Below are positions 1,303 to 43,466 of a DNA stretch of 64,000 nucleotides, one piece after another (within the stretch, counting starts at the first letter, position 1; every line of letters starts with the position of its first letter). The stretch is from an uncultured Gammaproteobacteria bacterium (GTDB lineage Bacteria > Pseudomonadota > Gammaproteobacteria > Steroidobacterales > Steroidobacteraceae). The notes under the pieces were generated by a model that saw nothing but the letters and a program-made list of their open reading frames with translations, was not told the origin of the DNA and made no database searches. The stretch spans positions 81,466 through 145,465 of the forward strand of contig CAVTDU010000038.1 of the NCBI GenBank assembly GCA_963733565.1. Reading direction: 5' to 3'. The position numbers and the translations under genes are program-made.

Positions 1303-2735
<1,433 letters not shown>

Positions 2736-2764
2736 GGGAGCTCCGGCGGGAGGGAAGGAAAAAC

Positions 2765-2949
2765 AAGGGGGTAATGATCAGGGGGTAGGGGGTAGTGAAG
2801 AGGCTGCGGACAGTGAGTAGCGGATAGCGGATAGTGGATAGTAAGAATCAGCATCGGCCGGCACGCCGGCCTCTTCACTACCCCCTACCCCCTGATCACT
2901 ACCCCCTATTCTTCCTCTGACTATCCCTTATCCGCTACTCACCATTCAC
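2765..2949. repeat. composite palindromic heptad-repeat element E1 (REP-like), sucB-lpdA spacer
   Basis: Perfect 30-bp inverted repeat 2775-2804 / 2869-2898 (TGATCAGGGGGTAGGGGGTAGTGAAGAGGC). Second inverted pair 2811-2847 / 2909-2949 made of AGCGGAT heptads. GC apex palindrome GGCCGGCACGCCGGCC at 2856-2871. Confidence 0.9.
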
Positions 2950-2953
2950 TTCC

Positions 2954-4184
2954 TCAGACCTGCAGCAACAGCCGCGCCGGATCCTCCAGCGCGTCCTTCA
3001 CTGCGACGAGGAACTGCACGGCGTCGCGGCCGTCGACGATGCGGTGATCGTAGGTCAGCGCCAGGTACATCATCGGCCGCACGACGACCTGCCCGTCGAC
3101 CACGACCGGGCGTTCCTGGATCTTGTGCATGCCGAGGATCGCGCTCTGCGGGGCATTCAGGATCGGCGTCGACAGCAGCGAGCCGAACACGCCGCCGTTG
3201 GTGATCGTGAAGGTACCGCCGGTCAGTTCCTCGATCGTCAGCGAGCCCTCGCGCGCGCGGTTGGCGTAGCCCACCACGGCCTGCTCGATCTCACCGAAGC
3301 CGAGGGCATCGGCATTGCGCAGCACCGGCACGATGAGCCCGCGATCGGTAGAGACGGCCACGCCGATGTCGTAGTACTCGTGGTACACGATGTCGGTTCC
3401 ATCCACCGAGGCATTCACCAGCGGAAAGCGGCGCAGCGCCTCGATGCTGGCCTTGACGAAGAACGACATGAAACCGAGCCGCGCGCCGTGGGCCTTCTCG
3501 AAGCGCTCCTTGTAGCGCGCGCGCAGTTCGTTGACCGCCTTCAGGTCCACTTCATTGAACGTCGTCAGCATGGCGGCGGTCGCCTGGGCCTGCACGAGTC
3601 GCTCCGCAATGCGCGCCCGCAGGCGCGTCATCGGGACCCTGCGCTCGCCACGGGCGCCGGCCGGAGCACTCGCCGGCGCAGCAGGTGGCGCCGGAGTCGC
3701 GGCGGCAGCCGCGGGACCAGCCGCCCTTGCTGCCAAGGTGGGAAAGCACGTCACCCTTGGTGATGCGTCCGTCGCGGCCGCTGCCGGGAATCGCACCGGG
3801 CTCGAGCTTGTGCTCCTCGACGAGGCGACGCACGGAGGGCGCGAGCTTTTCGGCACTGCCGCCCGTCTTCGCATCGGCCGCTGGAGCAGGCTGCGTGGGC
3901 GCAGCAGGCGCCGTTGCCGCGGCTGGTGTCGAAGCTCCTGCGGCCGCGCCTTCATCGAGCAACGCGAGCACCTGGCCACTCGTGACGACGGCGCCGTTCT
4001 GCACCTTGAGTTCCCTGATGACGCCCGCCGCCGGCGCAGGCACTTCGAGCACGACCTTGTCGGTCTCGAGGTCGACGAGGTTCTCGTCGCGGCTCACCGC
4101 GTCGCCGGGCTTCTTGTGCCAGGCCACGAGCGTCGCATCCGCGACCGACTCGGGGAGTTGCGGGACGCGTACTTCGATGGTCAT
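2954..4184 (-). CDS. sucB: dihydrolipoyllysine-residue succinyltransferase (2-oxoglutarate dehydrogenase E2), one apparent frameshift
   Basis: N-terminal lipoyl domain [19 protein letters not shown]...[12 protein letters not shown]3-binding [13 protein letters not shown]-terminal catalytic domain with DHRIVDG. Frame switch near 3715-3730. Confidence 0.88.
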
Positions 4185-4263
4185 GTGTTCTTCCTGCTGG
4201 AGGCGCGCGCAATCGCTTCGGCGGCGGCGCGACTGGGGAGCTGCGGGACGCGTACTTCGATGG

Positions 4264-7162
<2,899 letters not shown>

Positions 7163-30919: not shown

Positions 30920-32291
<1,372 letters not shown>

Positions 32292-32471
32292 GGGGGAAGC
32301 GGGAAGCGGAAAGCGGTTAGTGACTAGCGGTTAGCGGTTAGTAGGAAGGATACTGCAGTGGCAGGTCCACGCGCTGACGTTCACGGAGAAGGATAGCCCG
32401 GCCGCAGCGCGCTGCCTCCTCACTAACCGCTAACCGCTGATCACTAACCACTTTCCGCTTCGCTTCCGCCT
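32292..32471. repeat. palindromic heptad-repeat element E2, putA-sdaA spacer
   Basis: Arms 32295-32349 and 32415-32470 are about 90 percent complementary (GGAAGCG / GTTAGCG heptads). 65-nt spacer ending in the palindrome GCAGCGCGCTGC. Fills the whole intergenic gap. Confidence 0.9.
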
Positions 32472-35665: not shown

Positions 35666-36375
35666 CTACTTGGTCTCGTACAGCAGGCCGATCGTCGTCA
35701 GCGTGTCGGTCTTCTCGATGCCCGGCGGGACATCGGTGTTGTAGCGCACCTCGTAGCCGATCCGCAGCCCGAGCGCCCCGGACATCATGACCTCGAGCCC
35801 GAGGTTGTTCTGCAGGTAGGTGTTGTCGGAACCGGTCTCGATCAGGAACCGCTCCACGATCTTGGTATTCCCGGTGAGCTGCTGCTCGAAGCCGAGGTCT
35901 CCGCGGAAGATCAGCCCATCGATGGTGTCACCGGTATCCGCTCCTTGGAAACTCGATAGCCCGGGCCGCCCTGCACCCAGAACTTGGTCTTGTCCGTGTT
36001 GATGAACCTGTAGCCAAGACCGGTCGCGAGCGATCCCTGGTAGTCGAAGGCGCTGAAGCGGTCGTCGTCGTAACGGCCAGCGCCGAACCAGTAGGCTTTC
36101 GGCGTGAAGTCGTAGCTCGACTGTCCGCGGACCTCCCAGCGCTGGGCCGTGGTCTCGCCCCCGGAACTGCCATAGTTGCCCGAGAAGCCGAATTCGTCGC
36201 TCCACGGGCCGCGAACGTACTTGACGACCGCCGCCGCGTTCGCCGACTCGGCGTCGCTGTTGCCAGTGGCGAAAGACCCGCCGAGTTCGGCCTTGCCGGA
36301 CCAGTCGGCATGGGCCGGCAGACAGGCTGCCAGCAGACCCAATCCCAGCAGCGATGCGTGCTTGTGCTTGATCAC
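35666..36375 (-). CDS. DUF481-family outer-membrane beta-barrel protein (YdiY-like), one apparent frameshift
   Basis: Signal peptide MIKHKHASLLGLGLLAACLPAHA, alternating beta-strand pattern, C-terminal ...TIGLLYETK. Frame switch near 35925-35945. Confidence 0.65.
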
Positions 36376-37696: not shown

Positions 37697-40600
37697 CTAG
37701 TGAAAGTCACGCGGGCTGGTCGCGATCCGCCCCAGCCACCGCGACAGATCCACGATCCGGTGCGCGATCACGTGCATCACCTCGCCCTCGAGCTGCAGTT
37801 CCCCCGCCACGCCCATCAGGCGCGAGCCGATGAGCGCCTGGCGCTGGCGGTCGGCCACGTTTCTCCACACGATCAGGTTGACGTACCCCGTCTCGTCCTC
37901 GAGCGTGACGAAGGTGACGCCCTGGGCGCTGCCTGGACGCTGCCGCGTGATGACGAGCCCGGCGGTGCGGACCGTCGCGCCCTGCTTCATCCCGCGCAAC
38001 TGCGCCGCGGTCAGGATCCCGCGCGTCTCGAGCCTTGCCCGCAGCAGCGCCAGCGGGTGGCGACGCAGCGTGAGCCCCGTGTGTGCGTAGTCGGCCACGA
38101 TATCCTCGCCTTCGCGCGGCGCACGCAGCATGGGTATGCCTTCGGCAATCCGCAGCTGCGGGAGGATCGGCAGCGGCGCCTCGACGCCAGCCACGTTCCA
38201 CGCGGCCCGGTGGCGATGGCCTGCGAATCCTTCGAGCGCACCAGCGGCGGCCAGGCAGCCGAGTTCGCGGCGGTCGAGCCTGGCCCGTTCGGCGAGGTCC
38301 TGCACGTTCGCGAACGCGCCCGTGAGCCGCGTCTCGACGAGGCGCAGCGCGGCCGGCTCCGACAGTCCCTTCACCAGCCGCAGGCCGAGGCGCAGCGCCG
38401 CTGCGCCGTCCTCGCGCCGCTCGAGCGTGCAGTCCCAGTCGCTCGCGCGCGCGTCGACCGGGCGGATCTCGACGTCATGGCGTTGCGCGTCCTGCACGAG
38501 CTGCGACGGCGCGTAGAACCCCATCGGCTGGCTGTTCAGCAGCGCCGCGGTGAATGCCGCCGGCTCGTGGCGCTTGAGCCACGCCGACACGTACACCAGC
38601 AGCGCAAAGCTCGCGGCATGCGACTCCGGGAATCCGTACTCGCCGAAACCGAGGATCTGCCGGAAGATCTGCTTCGCGAACTCCTCGGCGTAGCCCCGCT
38701 CGCGCATGCCGCGAATCAGCCGTTCCTCGAAGTGCCCGAGTCCGCCCTTGCGCTTCCAGGCGGCCATCGCGCGGCGCAGCTGGTCCGCCTCGCCCGCCGT
38801 GAAGCCCGCGGCGACGATCGCCAGCTGCATCACCTGCTCCTGGAAGATCGGCACGCCGAGCGTGCGCTGCAGCACTCCTTCGACTTCCGCGCTGGGGTAA
38901 CTCACGGGCTCGAGCCCGCCGCGGCGGCGCAGGTACGGGTGCACCATGTCGCCCTGGATCGGGCCCGGGCGGATGATCGCCACTTCGATCACGAGGTCGT
39001 AGTAATTGCGCGGCTTCAGGCGCGGCAGCATCGCCATCTGCGCACGCGACTCGATCTGGAACACGCCCATCGTGTCGCCGTGGCCGATCATCTCGTAGAC
39101 GTCCGGGTCTTCCGCCGGCACGCTCGCGAGCGTCCAGCGCGTGCCGCGGAACTGCTCGACCAGCGCGAAGGCACGGCGGATGGCGGCGAGCATGCCGAGT
39201 CCGAGCACGTCCACCTTGAGGAGCCCGAGCGCGTCGAGGTCGTCCTTGTCCCACTGGATGACCGTGCGCTCGTCCATCGCGGCATTCTCGACCGGCACCA
39301 GTTCCTCGAGCAGGTCGCGCGCGATGACGAAACCGCCGACGTGCTGCGACAGGTGCCGCGGGAAGCCGAGCAGCGCACGGGCCAGCGCGATCACCCGCGC
39401 GAGCACCGGGCTCTCGGGATCGAGGCCCGCCTCGCGCACGCGCTCCGCATCGATGTGCGACCCGTCCCACCACTGCATGGAGCGGGCGAGCGCGTTGACC
39501 TGCAGCGGGTCGAGCCCGAGCGCCCTTGCCACGTCGCGGAGCGCGCTGCGCGGCCGGTAGCAGATCACCGTGGCCGTGAGCGCGGCGCGGTGCCGGCCGT
39601 ACTTCGCGTAGATGTACTGGATCACCTCCTCGCGCCGCTCGTGCTCGAAGTCCACGTCGATGTCGGGCGGCTCGTTGCGTTCGCGCGAGATGAAGCGCTC
39701 GAAGAGCAGCGACATCCGCGCCGGGTCCACCTCGGTGACGCCGAGGCAGAAGCACACCGCGGAATTGGCGGCGGACCCGCGCCCCTGGCAGAGGATGCCG
39801 CGCGACCGCGCGTAGTTGACGATGTCGTGCACGGTGAGGAAATACGCCTCGTAGCGCAGCTCCTCGATCAGCGCGAGCTCGTGCTCGATGAGTTTCGCCG
39901 CCGCTGCCGGCACTCCTTGCGGCCAGCGTCGCCGGCACCCCTCGTCCGTCAGCCTGCGCAGCCAGCTCGAGGCCGTCTCGCCCTCGGGGACGATCTCGCG
40001 CGGATATTCGTAGCGCAACTCGTCGAGCGAGAAACGGCAGCGTGACGCGACATCGAGCGTCGCGGCGAGGAGCTCCGGGGGATGGAGTTCCTCCAGCCGC
40101 TGCAGCGGCCGCAGGTGCCGTTCGCCGTTCGCATGCAACGCGTAGCCTGCGCGGTCCACGGTGGTCCCGAGGCGCGTGGCCGTGAGCACGTCCTGCAGCG
40201 CGCGCCGGCCGCGCACGTGCATGTGCACGTCGCCGGTCGCCACCAGTGGCAGGCCGAGCGCCCGGCCGAGTTCCTGCAGCGTCGCGAGCCGGCGGCGATC
40301 ATGCCCGGTGGTGAGCAGCTCGACCGCGATCCACAGCCGGCCGGGAAAGATCGCAGCGAGCCAGGCGGCCTCCGAGGGATCGGGGCGGGCCGAGGGCAGC
40401 CAGAGAGCCAGGCAGGAGGGAAAGGGGATAGCGGATAGCGGTTAGCGGTTAGTGAAGAGGCCGACTGCGTCGGCCGCTCTTGATTCTTACTATCCGCTAA
40501 CCGCTGATCACTAACCGCTCTCTTGCTATCCGCTACCCCGCTCCTCTCCCCGCGAAGTCCTCCCGCTCCAGCCGATACTGCCCCTTCGGCGCCGCCCGTC

Positions 40601-40886
40601 GCGCCCGGGTGATCAGCCGGCAGAGTTGCCCGTAGCCTTGCCTGTCGGTGGCCAGCAGCACGCAACGCAGGCCGTCGACGAGGCGGAATTCGCTGCCGAT
40701 GATTATCCTGAGGCCCCTCGCCTTTGCCGCGACGTGTGCGCGCACCGCACCGGCGACGGAACACTCGTCGGTGATCGCGAGCGCCTCGTAACCGAGCGCG
40801 ACGGCCCGTTCGACGAGTTCCTCCGGGTGCGACGCGCCGCGCAGGAAGCTGAAATTGCTGAGGCAGTGCAGTTCGGCGTAGCCCAT
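37697..40886 (-). CDS. dnaE2: error-prone DNA polymerase DnaE2 (ImuC), coding sequence interrupted by element E3
   Basis: N-terminal PHP fragment [19 protein letters not shown]... (40533-40886) stops at a TAG inside E3. The remaining roughly 915 codons are open from 40441 down to 37697 (...[12 protein letters not shown]...[13 protein letters not shown]...) in another frame. Confidence 0.9.
40415..40550. mobile_element. palindromic heptad-repeat element E3 inserted in dnaE2
   Basis: Left arm TAGCGGA/TAGCGGT heptads (TAG at 40429, 40436, 40443, 40450), apex GGCCGAC-TGC-GTCGGCC (40459-40475), right arm of complementary heptads. Same family as E1, E2 and E4. Confidence 0.85.
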
Positions 40887-40892
40887 GTCCGC

Positions 40893-42582
40893 TCAGCCGA
40901 ACACGCCATGCAGAAACCAGCGGCCCTCCGCACGTCGCTCGCGAAACACCCACAGGCGCATGCCGCCGGCCGTGCGCGCCACGTAGTAGTCGCGCCGCAC
41001 GTCACGACCGTCCCACCATCCGGATTCGATGCGTTCCGGGCCTTCCTCGAATTCGAGCCTGCCCTCGTAGCGCGGATGCTCCCTTCCGTCGAGCGGCTGC
41101 GGCTCCGCGAGCAGCCACAGCGGCCTGGAGGGGACATTCTCCGGGAGGGGGACATTTTCCCGGAGGGGACATTCCCTCTTCCGGCCGACGCTTCCCGTAG
41201 CGGAGAGGGCAAAGGGGAATGTCCCTTCCCCTCCCCGGGAGAATGTCCCCTATTTCCCAGGCGGACTCGGGGCGATGCTCCGGCACCACCTGTATCCCGT
41301 ACACCGCGTCCGTGCCGAGTCGTGCCCGCAGGCGCTCGACCAGTTGCGGCACGCTGGTCGAGCGCCCCCGGGCGCGTGCAAAGAGATCGCTGGCCTCCGG
41401 GTTCGCCACCACCAACGGGCCGCTCCGCAGGCGGAGCGCGCGTACGGGCCCGGGCAACTCAGTGCGTGCAAGCCGCTCGCGCAGCAGCTCGGTAATCCGG
41501 CCGGCCTGCGCCGTGGGCTCCGCAAGGCGCAGACACACGCGTGTCGGTGGCACATCGCGGTGCAGCAGCGAGAAGTCGAGCACGTCCACCCCGCAACACC
41601 TGAGCTCGAGGAACGAGCACAGTTCATCCACCAGCGGCCCGGCAGCCCGGCCAAGGCGTTCCGTGTCGGAGATCTCGGGCTCGAGGTCGCGCCGCACCGA
41701 GTAGCGTTCCCGCGGCACGAAGGCGACACGCGGATCGGGCGCGCACCCGACGGCACGATCGAGCGCACGCAGCATCTGCGGCACGAACCGGCGGGCGAAT
41801 CCGTCACGCGGCAGCTTCAGGCAATCGCCGATGGTGCGCACGCCCATCGCAGCGAGTGGCTCCAGGCACTTTTCCGGCCAGCGCGCACAGGCGAGCGGCA
41901 GCCGCGCGAGGCGGCTTGCGAGTCCGTCCCTGCTGCGCAAGGCGACTTCCTCGCCCATGCGCGCGAACCAGAGCGAAGCCAGCGGCGTTGGCGTGAGCGC
42001 GAGCAGCGGCGCCAGACCCATGGATTGCAGCCGCTCACGCACCCGGGCGATGAAACGTCGTACGCCGCCGAACAGCCTGAGACTGCCGCGCACTTCGAGC
42101 AGCACCGCGTCGGGCGGCTCGAGCACGACGCGCGGCGTGAATCCGATTGCGATTGTTGCCACTGCCTCGAGCAGCGCGCGTTCGGCCTGCGCGTCGCGCG
42201 CCAGCACGTGCAGGCCAGGCAGCAATGCGAGGGCCGAGTTGAGCGCCATTCCGCGCGTGACGCCGGCCGCGACCGCAGCGGCATCACCTGCGCAGACCAC
42301 CTTGCCTCCGCCTTCCAGGTCCACGACCACGGTGGCGGTGCCGGGGTCGTGCCCGGCGACGTGCTGCGCAGCCGCCGTGCGCTGGCGCAGAGACTCGAGC
42401 ACGTAGTGCGGCAGATGAATCGCGAGCCAGAGTTCGTTGCTCGTCGCGGCCGCGCGGACCGGCTTGCCTGCGCCACGCCCTCCGCCAGGTGCTGGCCGCA
42501 GCCCCGGCTGGTTTCGCACCGTTGCGCGAGACGGCTGGACTGCGGGCGTGGCCCGACGTTTTCCGGGCAGCGACATGGTCAA
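40893..42582 (-). CDS. imuB: Y-family-polymerase-like ImuB, coding sequence interrupted by element E5
   Basis: Core NELWLAIHLPHYVLESL... to ...PEHRPESAWEI (41251-42582). Conserved C-terminal RPLWLLAEPQPL...ERIESGWWDG...WFLHGVFG (40893-41129) lies in a shifted frame after the 121-bp element. Confidence 0.88.
41130..41250. mobile_element. 121-bp palindromic element E5 (GGGGACATT words) inserted in imuB
   Basis: Perfect 13-bp terminal inverted repeat GGGGACATTCTCC (41130-41142) / GGAGAATGTCCCC (41238-41250). Three forward and two reverse GGGGACATT copies. No flanking direct repeat. Confidence 0.85.
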
Positions 42583-43223
42583 TGCGCGACGGCGTGCGCC
42601 GCGGGGTCGAGCCAGCCGAGCTGCACGGTCGCCGCCTGCCCGCCGCGGCTCTTCACGATGTGCACCACGAGGCCCTTGCGACTGGATTCGAGCGCGATGC
42701 GCAACACCGCGGGCGACGGCTCATTGCCATCGGCCAGCCTGCGGAAGAGCACCGCCATGCAGCGCGACTGCTCTGCCGCGAGTTGCAGGCGGCGCAGTCC
42801 CTGGCGATCGCGAAACTCCGCCCAGCCGAGCACGGCGCTGCAGGCGCCCGAGCGCAGCGCCTGTTCCATCGCCCACTCCGCAGGCTGTGCGCGCACGAGC
42901 AGCAGGCGCCGCACGTCGATGCCGCATGCGACGAGTGCGGGTGCGTAAGGCTGGTAGGGCGGCGCGACCCACGCGAGCCAGCCTTCCCCATGATCCTCGT
43001 GGCCCAGCGCGGCGAGCGCGGGCATGAGCAGGCTCAGTTCACCCACGCCGTGACGATCGGTGAGGATCTCGATCAGTCCCTGCGCAGGCCAGCCGCCGCC
43101 GGGCAGGCAACGATCGAGCGCCACGTATCCCGTGGGCCGACCCGCGGGCTGCGACGTCGCTCCGCCCTGCTCCCTCGCGCGCCAGAGACCGGGATGACGC
43201 AGCAGGTCGTCGATGGAAGACAT
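42579..43223 (-). CDS. imuA: SOS cell-division-inhibitor-like / RecA-fold protein ImuA
   Basis: 214-aa protein directly upstream of imuB with a 4-nt overlap. Typical ImuA pattern (...LPGGGWPAQGLIEIL...). Position in a lexA-imuA-imuB-dnaE2 cassette. Confidence 0.8.
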   Translation of the reverse strand: MSSIDDLLRHPGLWRAREQGGATSQPAGRPTGYVALDRCLPGGGWPAQGLIEILTDRHGVGELSLLMPALAALGHEDHGEGWLAWVAPPYQPYAPALVACGIDVRRLLLVRAQPAEWAMEQALRSGACSAVLGWAEFRDRQGLRRLQLAAEQSRCMAVLFRRLADGNEPSPAVLRIALESSRKGLVVHIVKSRGGQAATVQLGWLDPAAHAVAH

Positions 43224-43466
43224 GGGGAGGGGAAGCGGATAGTGAGTAGCGGATAGTGGATAGTGAGAACGGAAAGGGGGTAGTGATCAGGGGGTAGGGG
43301 GTAGTGGAAGAAGAAAGCGGTTCGTGATCAGCGGTTAGCGGTTAGTGAGGAGTAAGGATCGGCCGGCGCGCCGGCCTCTTCACTATCCCCTACCCCCTGC
43401 TCACTACCCCCTCTCCGACTTCTTACTAACCGCTATCCGCTAACCGCTAGTCACTCTCCGCTTTCC
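43224..43466. repeat. 243-bp composite heptad-repeat palindromic element E4 filling the lexA-imuA spacer
   Basis: Three left heptad blocks (AGCGGAT, AGGGGGT and AGCGGTT types), the perfect 16-nt palindrome GGCCGGCGCGCCGGCC (43361-43376), then complementary right blocks. Confidence 0.9.

Follow-up and report, generated by a model that had tools for sequence, protein, structure and literature searches.

A heptad-armed palindromic repeat translated within dnaE2 of Steroidobacteraceae, and the probable assembly origin of a frame break at its edges

Introduction

The window analysed here, a 64-kb stretch of DNA, carries lexA, imuA, imuB and dnaE2 in that order. As assembled, dnaE2 is read in two different frames on either side of a palindromic repeat, which raises the question of whether the repeat has split the gene or is part of the protein that the gene encodes. 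We favour, with a probability of roughly 0.6, a joint answer. An old repeat, similar to the REP and RPE palindromes of other bacteria, is translated as a loop of the PHP domain of DnaE2, and the break in the reading frame is an error of the assembled consensus.

Results

Reading frames of dnaE2 in the window

The gene lies on the minus strand. An N-terminal frame of 117 codons opens at ATG 40886-40884 and ends at a TAG, and the remainder of DnaE2 is encoded in a second frame, which runs uninterrupted from 40441 to its stop codon at 37697; both halves of this arrangement had been predicted and are confirmed. Pfam PHP, DNA_pol3_alpha, finger, HHH_6 and OB domains are found in orthologs and in the called fragments. 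The C-terminal frame opens only past its own stop codon, TAA 40442-40444 (sequence read by eye). Because the stops of both frames sit between them, the N- and C-terminal frames of the window do not overlap.

The element separating the two frames lies between ...GACTTCGCG and TGCCTGGCTCTCTGG, and its 136 bp are equal to 1 modulo 3. Of the six possible frames just one, a third frame, runs through it without a stop, and it is this same frame that orthologs translate. If the one base that appears to be missing at each edge of the element were restored, dnaE2 would be intact with an insert of 46 amino acids. Judged from these frames, the break corresponds to two putative single-base slips at the element's edges and not to the element as a whole. 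Coordinates are collected in Table 1.

Table 1. Features of the imu cassette and copies of the repeat in the window
Feature	Coordinates	Strand	Remarks
dnaE2 (imuC) 5' segment, codons 1-113, N-terminal frame	40548..40886	-	93-96% identical to the N-terminus of intact orthologs
First frame slip interval (one base missing or two extra)	40536..40550	-	Inferred from N-frame homology to ...EDFAG and the stop at 40533
TAG ending the N-terminal frame as assembled	40533..40535	-	Bases read GGG GTA GCG in the ortholog frame
Heptad-armed palindromic element in dnaE2, 136 bp as assembled	40415..40550	-	Flank alignment with L001-L007 and L015-L023
Central GC hairpin GGCCGAC-TGC-GTCGGCC	40459..40475	.	GGCCGAC 40459-40465, loop TGC, GTCGGCC 40469-40475
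Second frame slip interval, homopolymer-rich (TATCCCCTTTCCCTCC)	40415..40441	-	Inferred; the stop-free frame must join CLALWLP
Third-frame ORF	39949..40953	-	Frame and peptide pattern as in intact orthologs, e.g. P0065, L019
dnaE2 3' part, CLALWLP to stop	37697..40414	-	904 codons counted from L-A-L-W
imuB, frame-broken as assembled	40893..42582	-	Break inside a second palindromic repeat, ~41120-41260
imuA	42579..43223	-
Composite intergenic copy, lexA-imuA	43227..43462	.	3 or more stops in each of the six frames; only a 34-nt relic in L003
Intergenic copy, putA-serine dehydratase gene (sda)	32294..32470	.	Absent in L003 (18-bp spacer)
Intergenic copy, sucB-lpdA	2770..2945	.	Same heptad/hairpin architecture

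Structure and copies of the repeat

The repeat structure predicted for this interval, heptads around a GC hairpin, is borne out. Taken as a whole, the element forms an imperfect inverted repeat, in which G-rich heptads (GGATAGC, 3.9 copies, 40426-40452) are followed by the central hairpin and by complementary heptads at 40490-40538; the two tracts comprise 3.9 and 4.3 copies with 95% and 69% matches. The window contains 11 occurrences of the heptad pattern TAGCGGWTAGCGG at no more than one mismatch, where 0.12 would be expected. Folded as RNA, 156 nt that include the element give -80.8 kcal/mol (z = -5.8).

In the central unit, TGAAGAGGCCGAC-TGC-GTCGGCCGCTCTTGA, a perfect 7-bp core lengthens to a stem of ~13 bp around a loop of 3 nt; the unit can be written (G/A/T)TAG-TGAAGAG-GCCGRC-loop-GYCGGC-CTCTTCA-CTA. 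In all copies an NTAG tag stands immediately 5' of TGAAGAG, as GTAG in some (GGGGGTAGTGAAGAG) and TTAG or ATAG in others; the tag is symmetric, occurring on both sides, and lies within the heptads. The units flanking the hairpin are GCGGATA, GCGGTTA, GGGGATA and GGGGGTA, with up to about 14 of them in intergenic copies.

Four copies of the element are present in the 64 kb, and three of these are intergenic with the same architecture, as the original prediction held. The intergenic copies contain 2-7 stops per frame in all six frames, and 7 of 8 copies outside dnaE2 in other genomes likewise lack an open frame. The MAG MFD10097.bin.1.35 has six matches to a strict 24-nt pattern of the element. 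The exact ends of the element are uncertain because the 'empty' sites of the related contig L003 keep relics. Searched against Rfam with gathering thresholds, the window yielded three tRNAs only and no match at the element.

The same site in relatives

The same hairpin occupies the same dnaE2 site, in frame, in relatives from ~97% junction DNA identity down to ~78% protein identity. Hairpin-bearing intact genes are found in L005 and L016 (both MEGAHIT), L006 and L019 (both JGI), L015 (MFD10097 MAG), L018, L020, L021 and L023, and their inserts are all 0 modulo 3 in length; the corresponding value is 1 in the window, L001 and L002, and 2 in L004. Every short-read assembly examined has the element in frame and translated. 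L003 and L022 carry an in-frame derivative of 78-81 nt that lacks the hairpin.

All hairpin-bearing dnaE2 copies of the relatives share identical stems, with a loop of GCA, TGC or AGC on the coding strand, and the arms vary between strains that are ~97% identical. Where the heptads would place TAG in frame, L005 and L006 read CAG or TGG. The translated inserts follow the pattern SDQR(L/I)ADS... or, in a GGGGATA-heptad version, GDRGWGLGDS...PASSLTPNPYPL.... Among 117 close orthologous proteins the insert is at least 25 amino acids long in 53, most of these being recognisable translations of the element with motifs derived from its arms, and the linker is 10 amino acids or shorter in 32, the shortest being 5. 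An AlphaFold2 model of P0065, poor as a whole (mean pLDDT 54.6), gives residues 113-143 of the insert no secondary structure and pLDDT values under 50, and places the insert between a helix (108-111) and a strand (149-154).

These comparisons bear on the idea that a mobile repeat recently split dnaE2 and that its precise removal would restore the ancestral gene. Deleting 40415-40550 does leave a continuous ORF, and the family is mobile or expandable at modest divergence: full copies in lexA-imuA and putA-sda stand against spacers of 34 and 18 nt in L003. The shared hairpin at one codon position across such divergent relatives nevertheless makes a recent event very improbable, as do the hairpin-less in-frame derivatives of L003 and L022; nor are obvious direct repeats, as a target-site duplication would leave, seen at the dnaE2, lexA-imuA or putA-sda junctions read by eye. 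Because the hairpin is shared to this depth, the insertion would predate these lineages. Alignment of orthologs, proposed as a way to find an empty site, returned the inserts and short linkers counted above. A clean excision is not supported either. The shortest-linker orthologs read ...DF, five residues and then LLALWLP; the REDF...LLALWLP junction given in the original prediction was nearly right, though it is not a direct fusion. That prediction left the interruption as either recent or tolerated. The element is tolerated, because it is translated, and as for the split, an artefact is the likeliest cause.

Selection on the downstream part and the fate of the break

The ~2.7 kb downstream of the element had been thought to contain no other lesion, and its 904 codons are indeed without indel or stop in the window and equally in L001, L002 and L004. 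For this part dN/dS within the clade is 0.06-0.23 (dS 0.026-0.044), similar to the 0.10-0.11 obtained against the intact L003. The ratios indicate purifying selection on dnaE2; since dS in the clade is only 0.03-0.04, such low values are also compatible with independent, very recent inactivation.

Purifying selection on both parts of the gene, together with the very stable hairpin, would suit a real break that is bypassed in expression, either by programmed frameshifting or ribosome hopping or through a 117-aa PHP fragment and a restart product. This we regard as the least credible of the explanations. The shifts required differ between alleles, being -1 twice in the window, +1 at the right in L001 and +1 at the left in L002, and because direction and position vary in this way no conserved recoding signal is possible. 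The non-overlap of the two frames in the window argues against bypass as well. A bypass of the T4 gene-60 type was rejected: the take-off codon before the TAG would be GGG, no matching landing codon was seen by eye, and the same differences between alleles apply. We also rejected a split protein with restart. The search for a restart codon that had been suggested goes against it, the first ATG, GTG or TTG of the C-terminal frame being GTG 40243, 66 codons beyond the junction, and restart there would lose conserved PHP residues.

A second palindrome in imuB

The neighbouring imuB is also frame-broken in the window, within a second palindromic repeat, unrelated to the heptad family and translated in the same operon. 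This palindrome is broken in the window, L001 and L002, that is, in three of the four clade long-read contigs, and is read in a single frame in L003 and L004 and in the short-read contigs L005, L006, L018-L020 and L023. The imuB of L004 has a separate frameshift farther upstream.

Assembly error versus genuine frame break

All four clade contigs with a broken element (window, L001, L002 and L004) bear Flye-style contig_N names, and the clade's short-read contigs are all in frame. Inverted repeats reportedly reduce the accuracy of nanopore base calling (Spealman et al. 2020). The window has indel errors elsewhere: frameshifts in ykuD and a DUF481 gene are confined to its contig, and L001, L002, L004 and L007 have frameshifts of their own in other genes. 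The MAGs retrieved for the group are nanopore MAGs of the Microflora Danica (MFD) project, which used Flye and one round of Medaka (PMC12313526). The MFD isolate names of the related MAGs and the Flye-style contig names point to an error-prone long-read metagenome assembly as the most likely source of the window contig.

Several observations count against an artefact. It needs about five one-base errors in ~600 nt over the four clade contigs, where the background rate is ~1 per 1-3.5 kb, so errors would have to be enriched 10-20 times in these palindromes. The imuB palindrome, broken in three of the same four contigs, adds to the count. The nanopore MAG L015 reads its own copy of the element correctly. 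Finally, the contrast between long and short reads is not strain-matched, the closest short-read contigs being of other strains, at 93-97% identity to the window.

One alternative is that the slips are genuine and that recent indels in the repeats have inactivated dnaE2 together with imuB, leaving the cassette a young pseudogene. The given sequence has a stop and a change of frame; L001, L002 and L004 are also broken within the element, each differently; the imuB palindrome, too, carries breaks in the window, L001 and L002; and the density of one-base indels looks alike in coding and intergenic copies. Against this, inactivation would have taken no fewer than six or seven independent events, all within palindromes, with none in 10.8 kb of downstream dnaE2 sequence over the four contigs. 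The dN/dS values, the translated frame that remains stop-free and the intact short-read relatives also speak against inactivation. Moreover, the contigs are frameshifted in the essential genes sucB and lpdA, each of which is spread across two frames in the window, and those lesions cannot be real. We consider a young pseudogene unlikely.

The same indels could instead mark a hypermutable switch, in which slippage of the 7-nt unit or of G/C runs toggles dnaE2 and imuB and makes the SOS mutasome phase-variable. The unit length is not divisible by three, strains ~97% identical have different arms, indels are concentrated in the elements, and the ORF has outlasted the breaks, as reversible off states would predict. 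If true, a reversible switch in a soil bacterium would be a contingency locus controlling mutability itself. We hold this to be improbable. Switching on the allele of the window would take two separate compensating events, and only ~3-4 imperfect heptads make up each arm of the dnaE2 copy. The sole length difference among the short-read alleles compared (132 and 147 nt) is a matter of whole codons, no short-read contig shows a dnaE2 off state, and assembly error is the simpler account of the same data.

We take the two slips of the window to be probably errors rather than mutations, and its dnaE2 to be most likely intact with the 46-aa insert.

Discussion

Proposed history of the insert

We propose that the element in dnaE2 would be an old insertion of a REP/MITE-like palindrome, consisting of a GC hairpin and flanking arrays of 7-nt units, which may have arrived by a transposition-like event. 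The insertion point, flanked by ...YRLERxDF and LLALWLP, would fall in a loop of the PHP domain at the protein's N-terminus. The insert is kept in frame and translated in Steroidobacteraceae and related uncultured Gammaproteobacteria, adding ~35-50 residues of low-complexity, probably disordered loop. In-frame TAG triplets of the heptads would have been removed by mutation, and the arms remodelled between strains as heptad modules were gained, lost and exchanged. The consensus would have dropped a single base at each of the palindrome's two edges, giving rise to the TAG and the change of frame in the window.

Relation to known repeats

The nearest parallel is provided by the GTAG/CGTC-tagged REPs surveyed by Di Nocera, De Gregorio & Rocco (2013, PMC3733652). 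Both are small GC-rich palindromes, multicopy and mostly intergenic, as are three of the four copies in the window. Occasional REP copies in ORFs are translated as 20-80 extra residues, with dnaE2 a listed host: translated intragenic REPs are described in the dnaE2 genes Oter_4053 of Opitutus terrae and Swit_1119 (residues 166-246) of Sphingomonas wittichii (PMC3733652). The central unit here has the dimensions of a REP (20-40 bp unit, 5-13 bp stem, 2-20 nt loop), its TAG-tagged 13-bp stem falling within the published 5-13 bp. The two differ in that the paper has no 7-nt arrays flanking the hairpin, which are present here on both sides, and in that the tag here is symmetric and often ATAG or TTAG, not GTAG. 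Steroidobacteraceae and this sequence family lie outside that survey.

Rickettsia palindromic elements (RPEs; Ogata et al. 2000, reviewed in PMC10969869) are ~100-150 bp long, inserted in frame in unrelated genes and translated, and their insertions are predicted to be compatible with protein fold and function (PMC10969869). A palindrome lying in frame within an ORF and translated is likewise found in L005, L006, L015, L016 and L018-L023. The RPEs occur in a different phylum and would have no sequence relationship with the element; they lack heptad arrays, which it has, and they occupy dozens of host genes in R. conorii, whereas here dnaE2 is the only host among the genes examined, alongside the different palindrome of imuB. 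Because the host is a gammaproteobacterium of the Steroidobacteraceae type, membership of the RPE family is not expected. The element works like an RPE, and we do not claim it as a member.

Two further systems invite comparison. Heterocystous cyanobacteria are said to carry STRR heptamers and small dispersed repeats, and would thus share intergenic 7-nt arrays near small hairpin-forming mobile repeats; unit sequences and phylum differ, and the likeness is one of resemblance only. With simple-sequence contingency loci the element shares a repeat in an ORF whose unit is not a multiple of three and whose content varies by strain, but the dnaE2 tracts are short and imperfect, the short-read alleles compared are whole codons apart, and frame-changing lengths or on-off polymorphism are seen only in error-prone long-read assemblies.

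Text searches of the literature for the heptad arrays themselves, and for repetitive extragenic palindromes in Steroidobacter, found no paper. The heptad-armed palindromic repeats appear to be a previously undescribed family in Steroidobacteraceae.

Meaning for the family

The split of the gene is probably unimportant, since it is most likely a polishing error, and the lesson is that frame breaks in palindromic repeats of nanopore-only MAGs should not be called pseudogenes. One copy of the family has been carried, and translated, in a PHP-domain loop of an error-prone polymerase over wide lineages, extending what has been published on REP-like repeats in DNA-repair genes, dnaE2 included. The inserts of these relatives would also form a natural series of loop variants with which to ask about effects of the insert on mutasome activity or mRNA stability.

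The dnaE2 element and its copies

As assembled, dnaE2 occupies two frames of the minus strand: the ATG at 40886 starts a 117-codon frame that is stopped by the TAG at 40533-40535, and a second frame, open from 40441 to 37697, codes for the other ~905 DnaE2 residues. The element measures 136 bp (40415-40550), which is 1 modulo 3, and is bounded by ...GACTTCGCG and TGCCTGGCTCTCTGG. Its heptad motif is found at 11 places in the window, where 0.12 would be expected, and RNA folding of a 156-nt stretch covering it gives -80.8 kcal/mol (z = -5.8). The palindromic heptad element and the frame break of the original prediction are thus confirmed by sequence, repeats and frames, and the element is real.

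Features of the window discussed in the text
Feature	Position	Strand	Remarks
G-rich heptads GGATAGC	in dnaE2 element		3.9 copies
Hairpin GGCCGAC-TGC-GTCGGCC	40459-40475		in dnaE2 element
Complementary heptads	in dnaE2 element		after hairpin
Same-design copies	about 2770-2945, 32294-32470, 43227-43462		all three intergenic
First slip interval	40536-40550
Second slip interval	40415-40441		homopolymer-rich (TATCCCCTTTCCCTCC)
Second palindrome	about 41120-41260	minus	imuB C-terminal linker, ...HRPESAWE to RPLWLLAEP; unrelated to dnaE2 element
lpdA and sucB two-frame region	1352-4751	minus	Pfam domains run on into overlapping ORF in other frame

The gene order is lexA, imuA, imuB, dnaE2, and the nearest named proteins come from Steroidobacteraceae MAGs. 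Among species-representative genomes, exact-pattern matches to the element fell solely in Steroidobacteraceae or 'uncultured Gammaproteobacteria' MAGs, several of which bear MFD isolate names. Many intergenic copies lie 0-3 nt from a neighbour's start codon (CAT followed by GGG... on the plus strand; 32291-32296 and 43221-43227 in the window, and the related loci L008, L013 and L017). At such copies the C-rich arm forms the end of the 5' leader (...CTTCCCCTCCCC-ATG), and nothing like a Shine-Dalgarno sequence stands beside the ATG. The lexA-imuA copy (43227-43462) is a composite of at least 5 arm modules, A-B-hairpin-A'-B'-A', rather than a simple nested palindrome. Relatives L001 and L004 have a ~29-nt module that the window and L002 lack, and the same spacer of L003 holds a 34-nt relic and nothing more. 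MFD10097.bin.1.35 (L009, L012) has very long, asymmetric heptad arrays in its intergenic copies: the two sides of one copy have ~5 and ~12 units, and in another ~14 GCGGATA/GGGGATA units stand against ~4 on the opposite side.

Insertion site across orthologs

Searching with the conceptually fused DnaE2 protein found full-length orthologs; large differences in length among them are confined precisely to the stretch between ...YRLERxDF and LLALWLP. Linker lengths were counted in the 117 orthologs having both anchors. The linker is 10 aa or shorter in 32 (minimum 5 aa, in proteins P0015, P0016, P0050 and P0051), and 53 have an insert of at least 25 aa. Most long inserts are recognizable by eye as translated element (for example P0065 and P0104), a big group of them reading ...AGDRGWGLGDSRNSLATPASSLTPNPYPLTPL. 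The contigs L005 (MEGAHIT k141) and L006 (JGI) hold four heptads, the hairpin CGGCCGAC-NNN-GTCGGCC and complementary heptads, the whole in frame, with CAG or TGG at heptad positions where TAG would be in frame. The locus of P0016, L007, is without the element and has just TTC-ACGGCCTCCCCTGGC-CTGCTC. L003 (protein P0001, 93% identical) and L022 carry an in-frame 78-81-nt derivative in which neither the hairpin nor its TAGs survive.

Because in-frame copies or derivatives sit in the same loop of orthologs, the insertion is old and has been kept as coding sequence; it is not a recent arrival in the window contig. A recent interruption, one of the two options in the original prediction, is not borne out.

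Read on the coding strand, the hairpin loop (40466-40468) is GCA in L006 and the window clade, where L015 and L016 have TGC; since these are reverse complements, the 3-nt loop may have flipped in an unchanged stem. Four orthologs (P0042, P0069, P0090 and P0113) carry ~100 aa in this loop, in which the motifs ...RHSG(D/V)D... and ...SLPDTRF... recur; these resemble the CGTC-1 REP-encoded peptides (RHSGGGRNL) in the Sphingomonas wittichii list. Another repeat family may have occupied the site.

P0065 was modelled with AlphaFold2 from 40 orthologs; the model as a whole is poor (mean pLDDT 54.6), with a moderately confident PHP region. Insert residues 113-143 have pLDDT below 50 and lack secondary structure; helix 108-111 precedes them and the LLALWLP strand 149-154 follows. 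This hints weakly that the insert may be a tolerated surface loop.

A stop-free third frame

Three-frame translation over the junction revealed that the frame used by neither part of dnaE2 is open across the whole element, the sole stop-free frame of six. The three intergenic copies in the window have 2-7 stops in every frame, and of eight copies outside dnaE2 in other genomes, seven are without any open frame. At the hairpin the third frame reads CGG CCG ACG CAG TCG GCC (RPTQSA). L006 translates the same register, L005 does so with one codon changed, and it recurs in close short-read contigs. Joining the three frames would require 1 base missing (or 2 extra) in each of the two slip intervals; mending both gives an insert of 138 nt (46 aa).

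Relatives by assembly type

Three 841-aa gene calls, 99-100% identical to the C-terminal part in the window, led to L001, L002 and L004, contigs named in the Flye style (contig_N) whose DNA is ~97% identical to that of the window over 14 kb. All three have the full element, with hairpin and proximal arms as in the window and distal arms that vary between GGGGGTA-type and GCGGATA-type heptad modules. All are out of frame, each in its own way: the stop-free frame is joined to the 5' frame in L001, with the slip at the right edge, and to the 3' frame in L002, with the slip at the left edge, and L004 has a 1-base deletion in the conserved flank (GACTT-GCG). A conserved recoding signal was ruled out, since these slips differ in place and kind.

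Scanning JGI metagenome contigs, which we take to be Illumina assemblies by standard practice, with the 24-nt left flank gave six contigs. Five (L018, L020, L021 and L023, 93-95% identical to the window, and L019, 97% identical beside the junction) have the same core and hairpin, 5/5 in frame (132 and 147 nt), with ORFs extending to the contig ends. Altogether, 9/9 short-read contigs are in frame (L018-L023, L005, L006 and L016). Among long-read contigs with the element or a derivative, L003 and L015 are in frame, and the window, L001, L002 and L004 are broken.

The imuB palindrome is made up of units 17-18 nt long (GGGGACATTCTCCCGGA) together with complementary ones, and copy number differs by strain. 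The frame is broken there in the window, L001 and L002; L003, L004, L005, L006, L018-L020 and L023 read through it in a single frame. At about 3200-3290 of the short-read JGI contig L021 its centre is gone (GGGGACATTCTCCTTTTCCAGGAAAAGGAGAATGTCCCC) and the imuB frame shifts, which could be a genuine loss of the hairpin or a collapse during assembly.

Assembly error or mutation

The assemblies are demonstrably noisy. In window lpdA, one frame carries Pyr_redox_2 profile positions 1-119 and a different frame carries 131-291, and the lpdA dimerisation domain matches positions 1-72 of 110 and no more; the catalytic domain of sucB is in a different frame from its lipoyl and E3-binding domains, which share one. 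That these housekeeping genes each lie over two frames shows indel errors to be frequent in the window assembly. Frameshifts seen in the window alone affect ykuD and the DUF481 gene (one is a single A missing at 35940), and private frameshifts are likewise present in each of L001, L002, L004 and L007, where the genes affected are putA, imuA, imuB and ykuD. An 83-nt unit stands in tandem in the sucB ORF region (4146-4317; 2.0 copies, 94% matches), either as a real duplication or as one produced by assembly. MFD MAGs of the group were made by the long-read Microflora Danica project with Flye (--meta, nano-hq) and one Medaka round (PMC12313526).

Given the stop-free third frame, the noisy assemblies and the in-frame short-read relatives, the proposed split of dnaE2 is most likely not real; we put the probability of an assembly artefact at roughly 0.6. 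About five errors in about 600 nt would be needed in the dnaE2 palindromes, 10-20x the rate elsewhere. This clustering of breaks in the dnaE2 and imuB palindromes fits consensus trouble at strain-variable palindromes, and also fits real indel hypermutability; phase variation at dnaE2 is improbable. Nanopore base calling is reportedly less accurate at inverted repeats (Spealman et al. 2020).

A real and recent inactivation of dnaE2 is unlikely. The 904 codons from L-A-L-W to the stop are free of indels and stops in the window, L001, L002 and L004, bearing out the claim of no other lesion downstream. Nei-Gojobori dN/dS is 0.06-0.23 within the window clade (dS 0.026-0.044) and 0.10-0.11 against L003. 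Selection thus maintains dnaE2 in the very clade with split-looking assemblies, which argues against inactivation.

Relation to known translated repeats

REPs inside ORFs, GTAG- and CGTC-tagged, have been catalogued by Di Nocera et al. 2013 (PMC3733652), with an excess in replication and repair genes. The error-prone polymerase gene dnaE2 is named there explicitly as a host: Opitutus terrae Oter_4053 has REPs at residues 934-971 and Sphingomonas wittichii Swit_1119 at residues 166-246. Rickettsia palindromic elements are the classic translated palindromic repeats (PMC10969869). The element works likewise, and its central unit has REP dimensions and a TAG-type tag. What sets it apart from intragenic REPs is its taxon, its sequence and its heptad arrays, which reach ~14 units in intergenic copies; all three are undescribed in the literature searched. 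The biology behind the 'split' is that of a known phenomenon, the translated intragenic repeat, in a new family.
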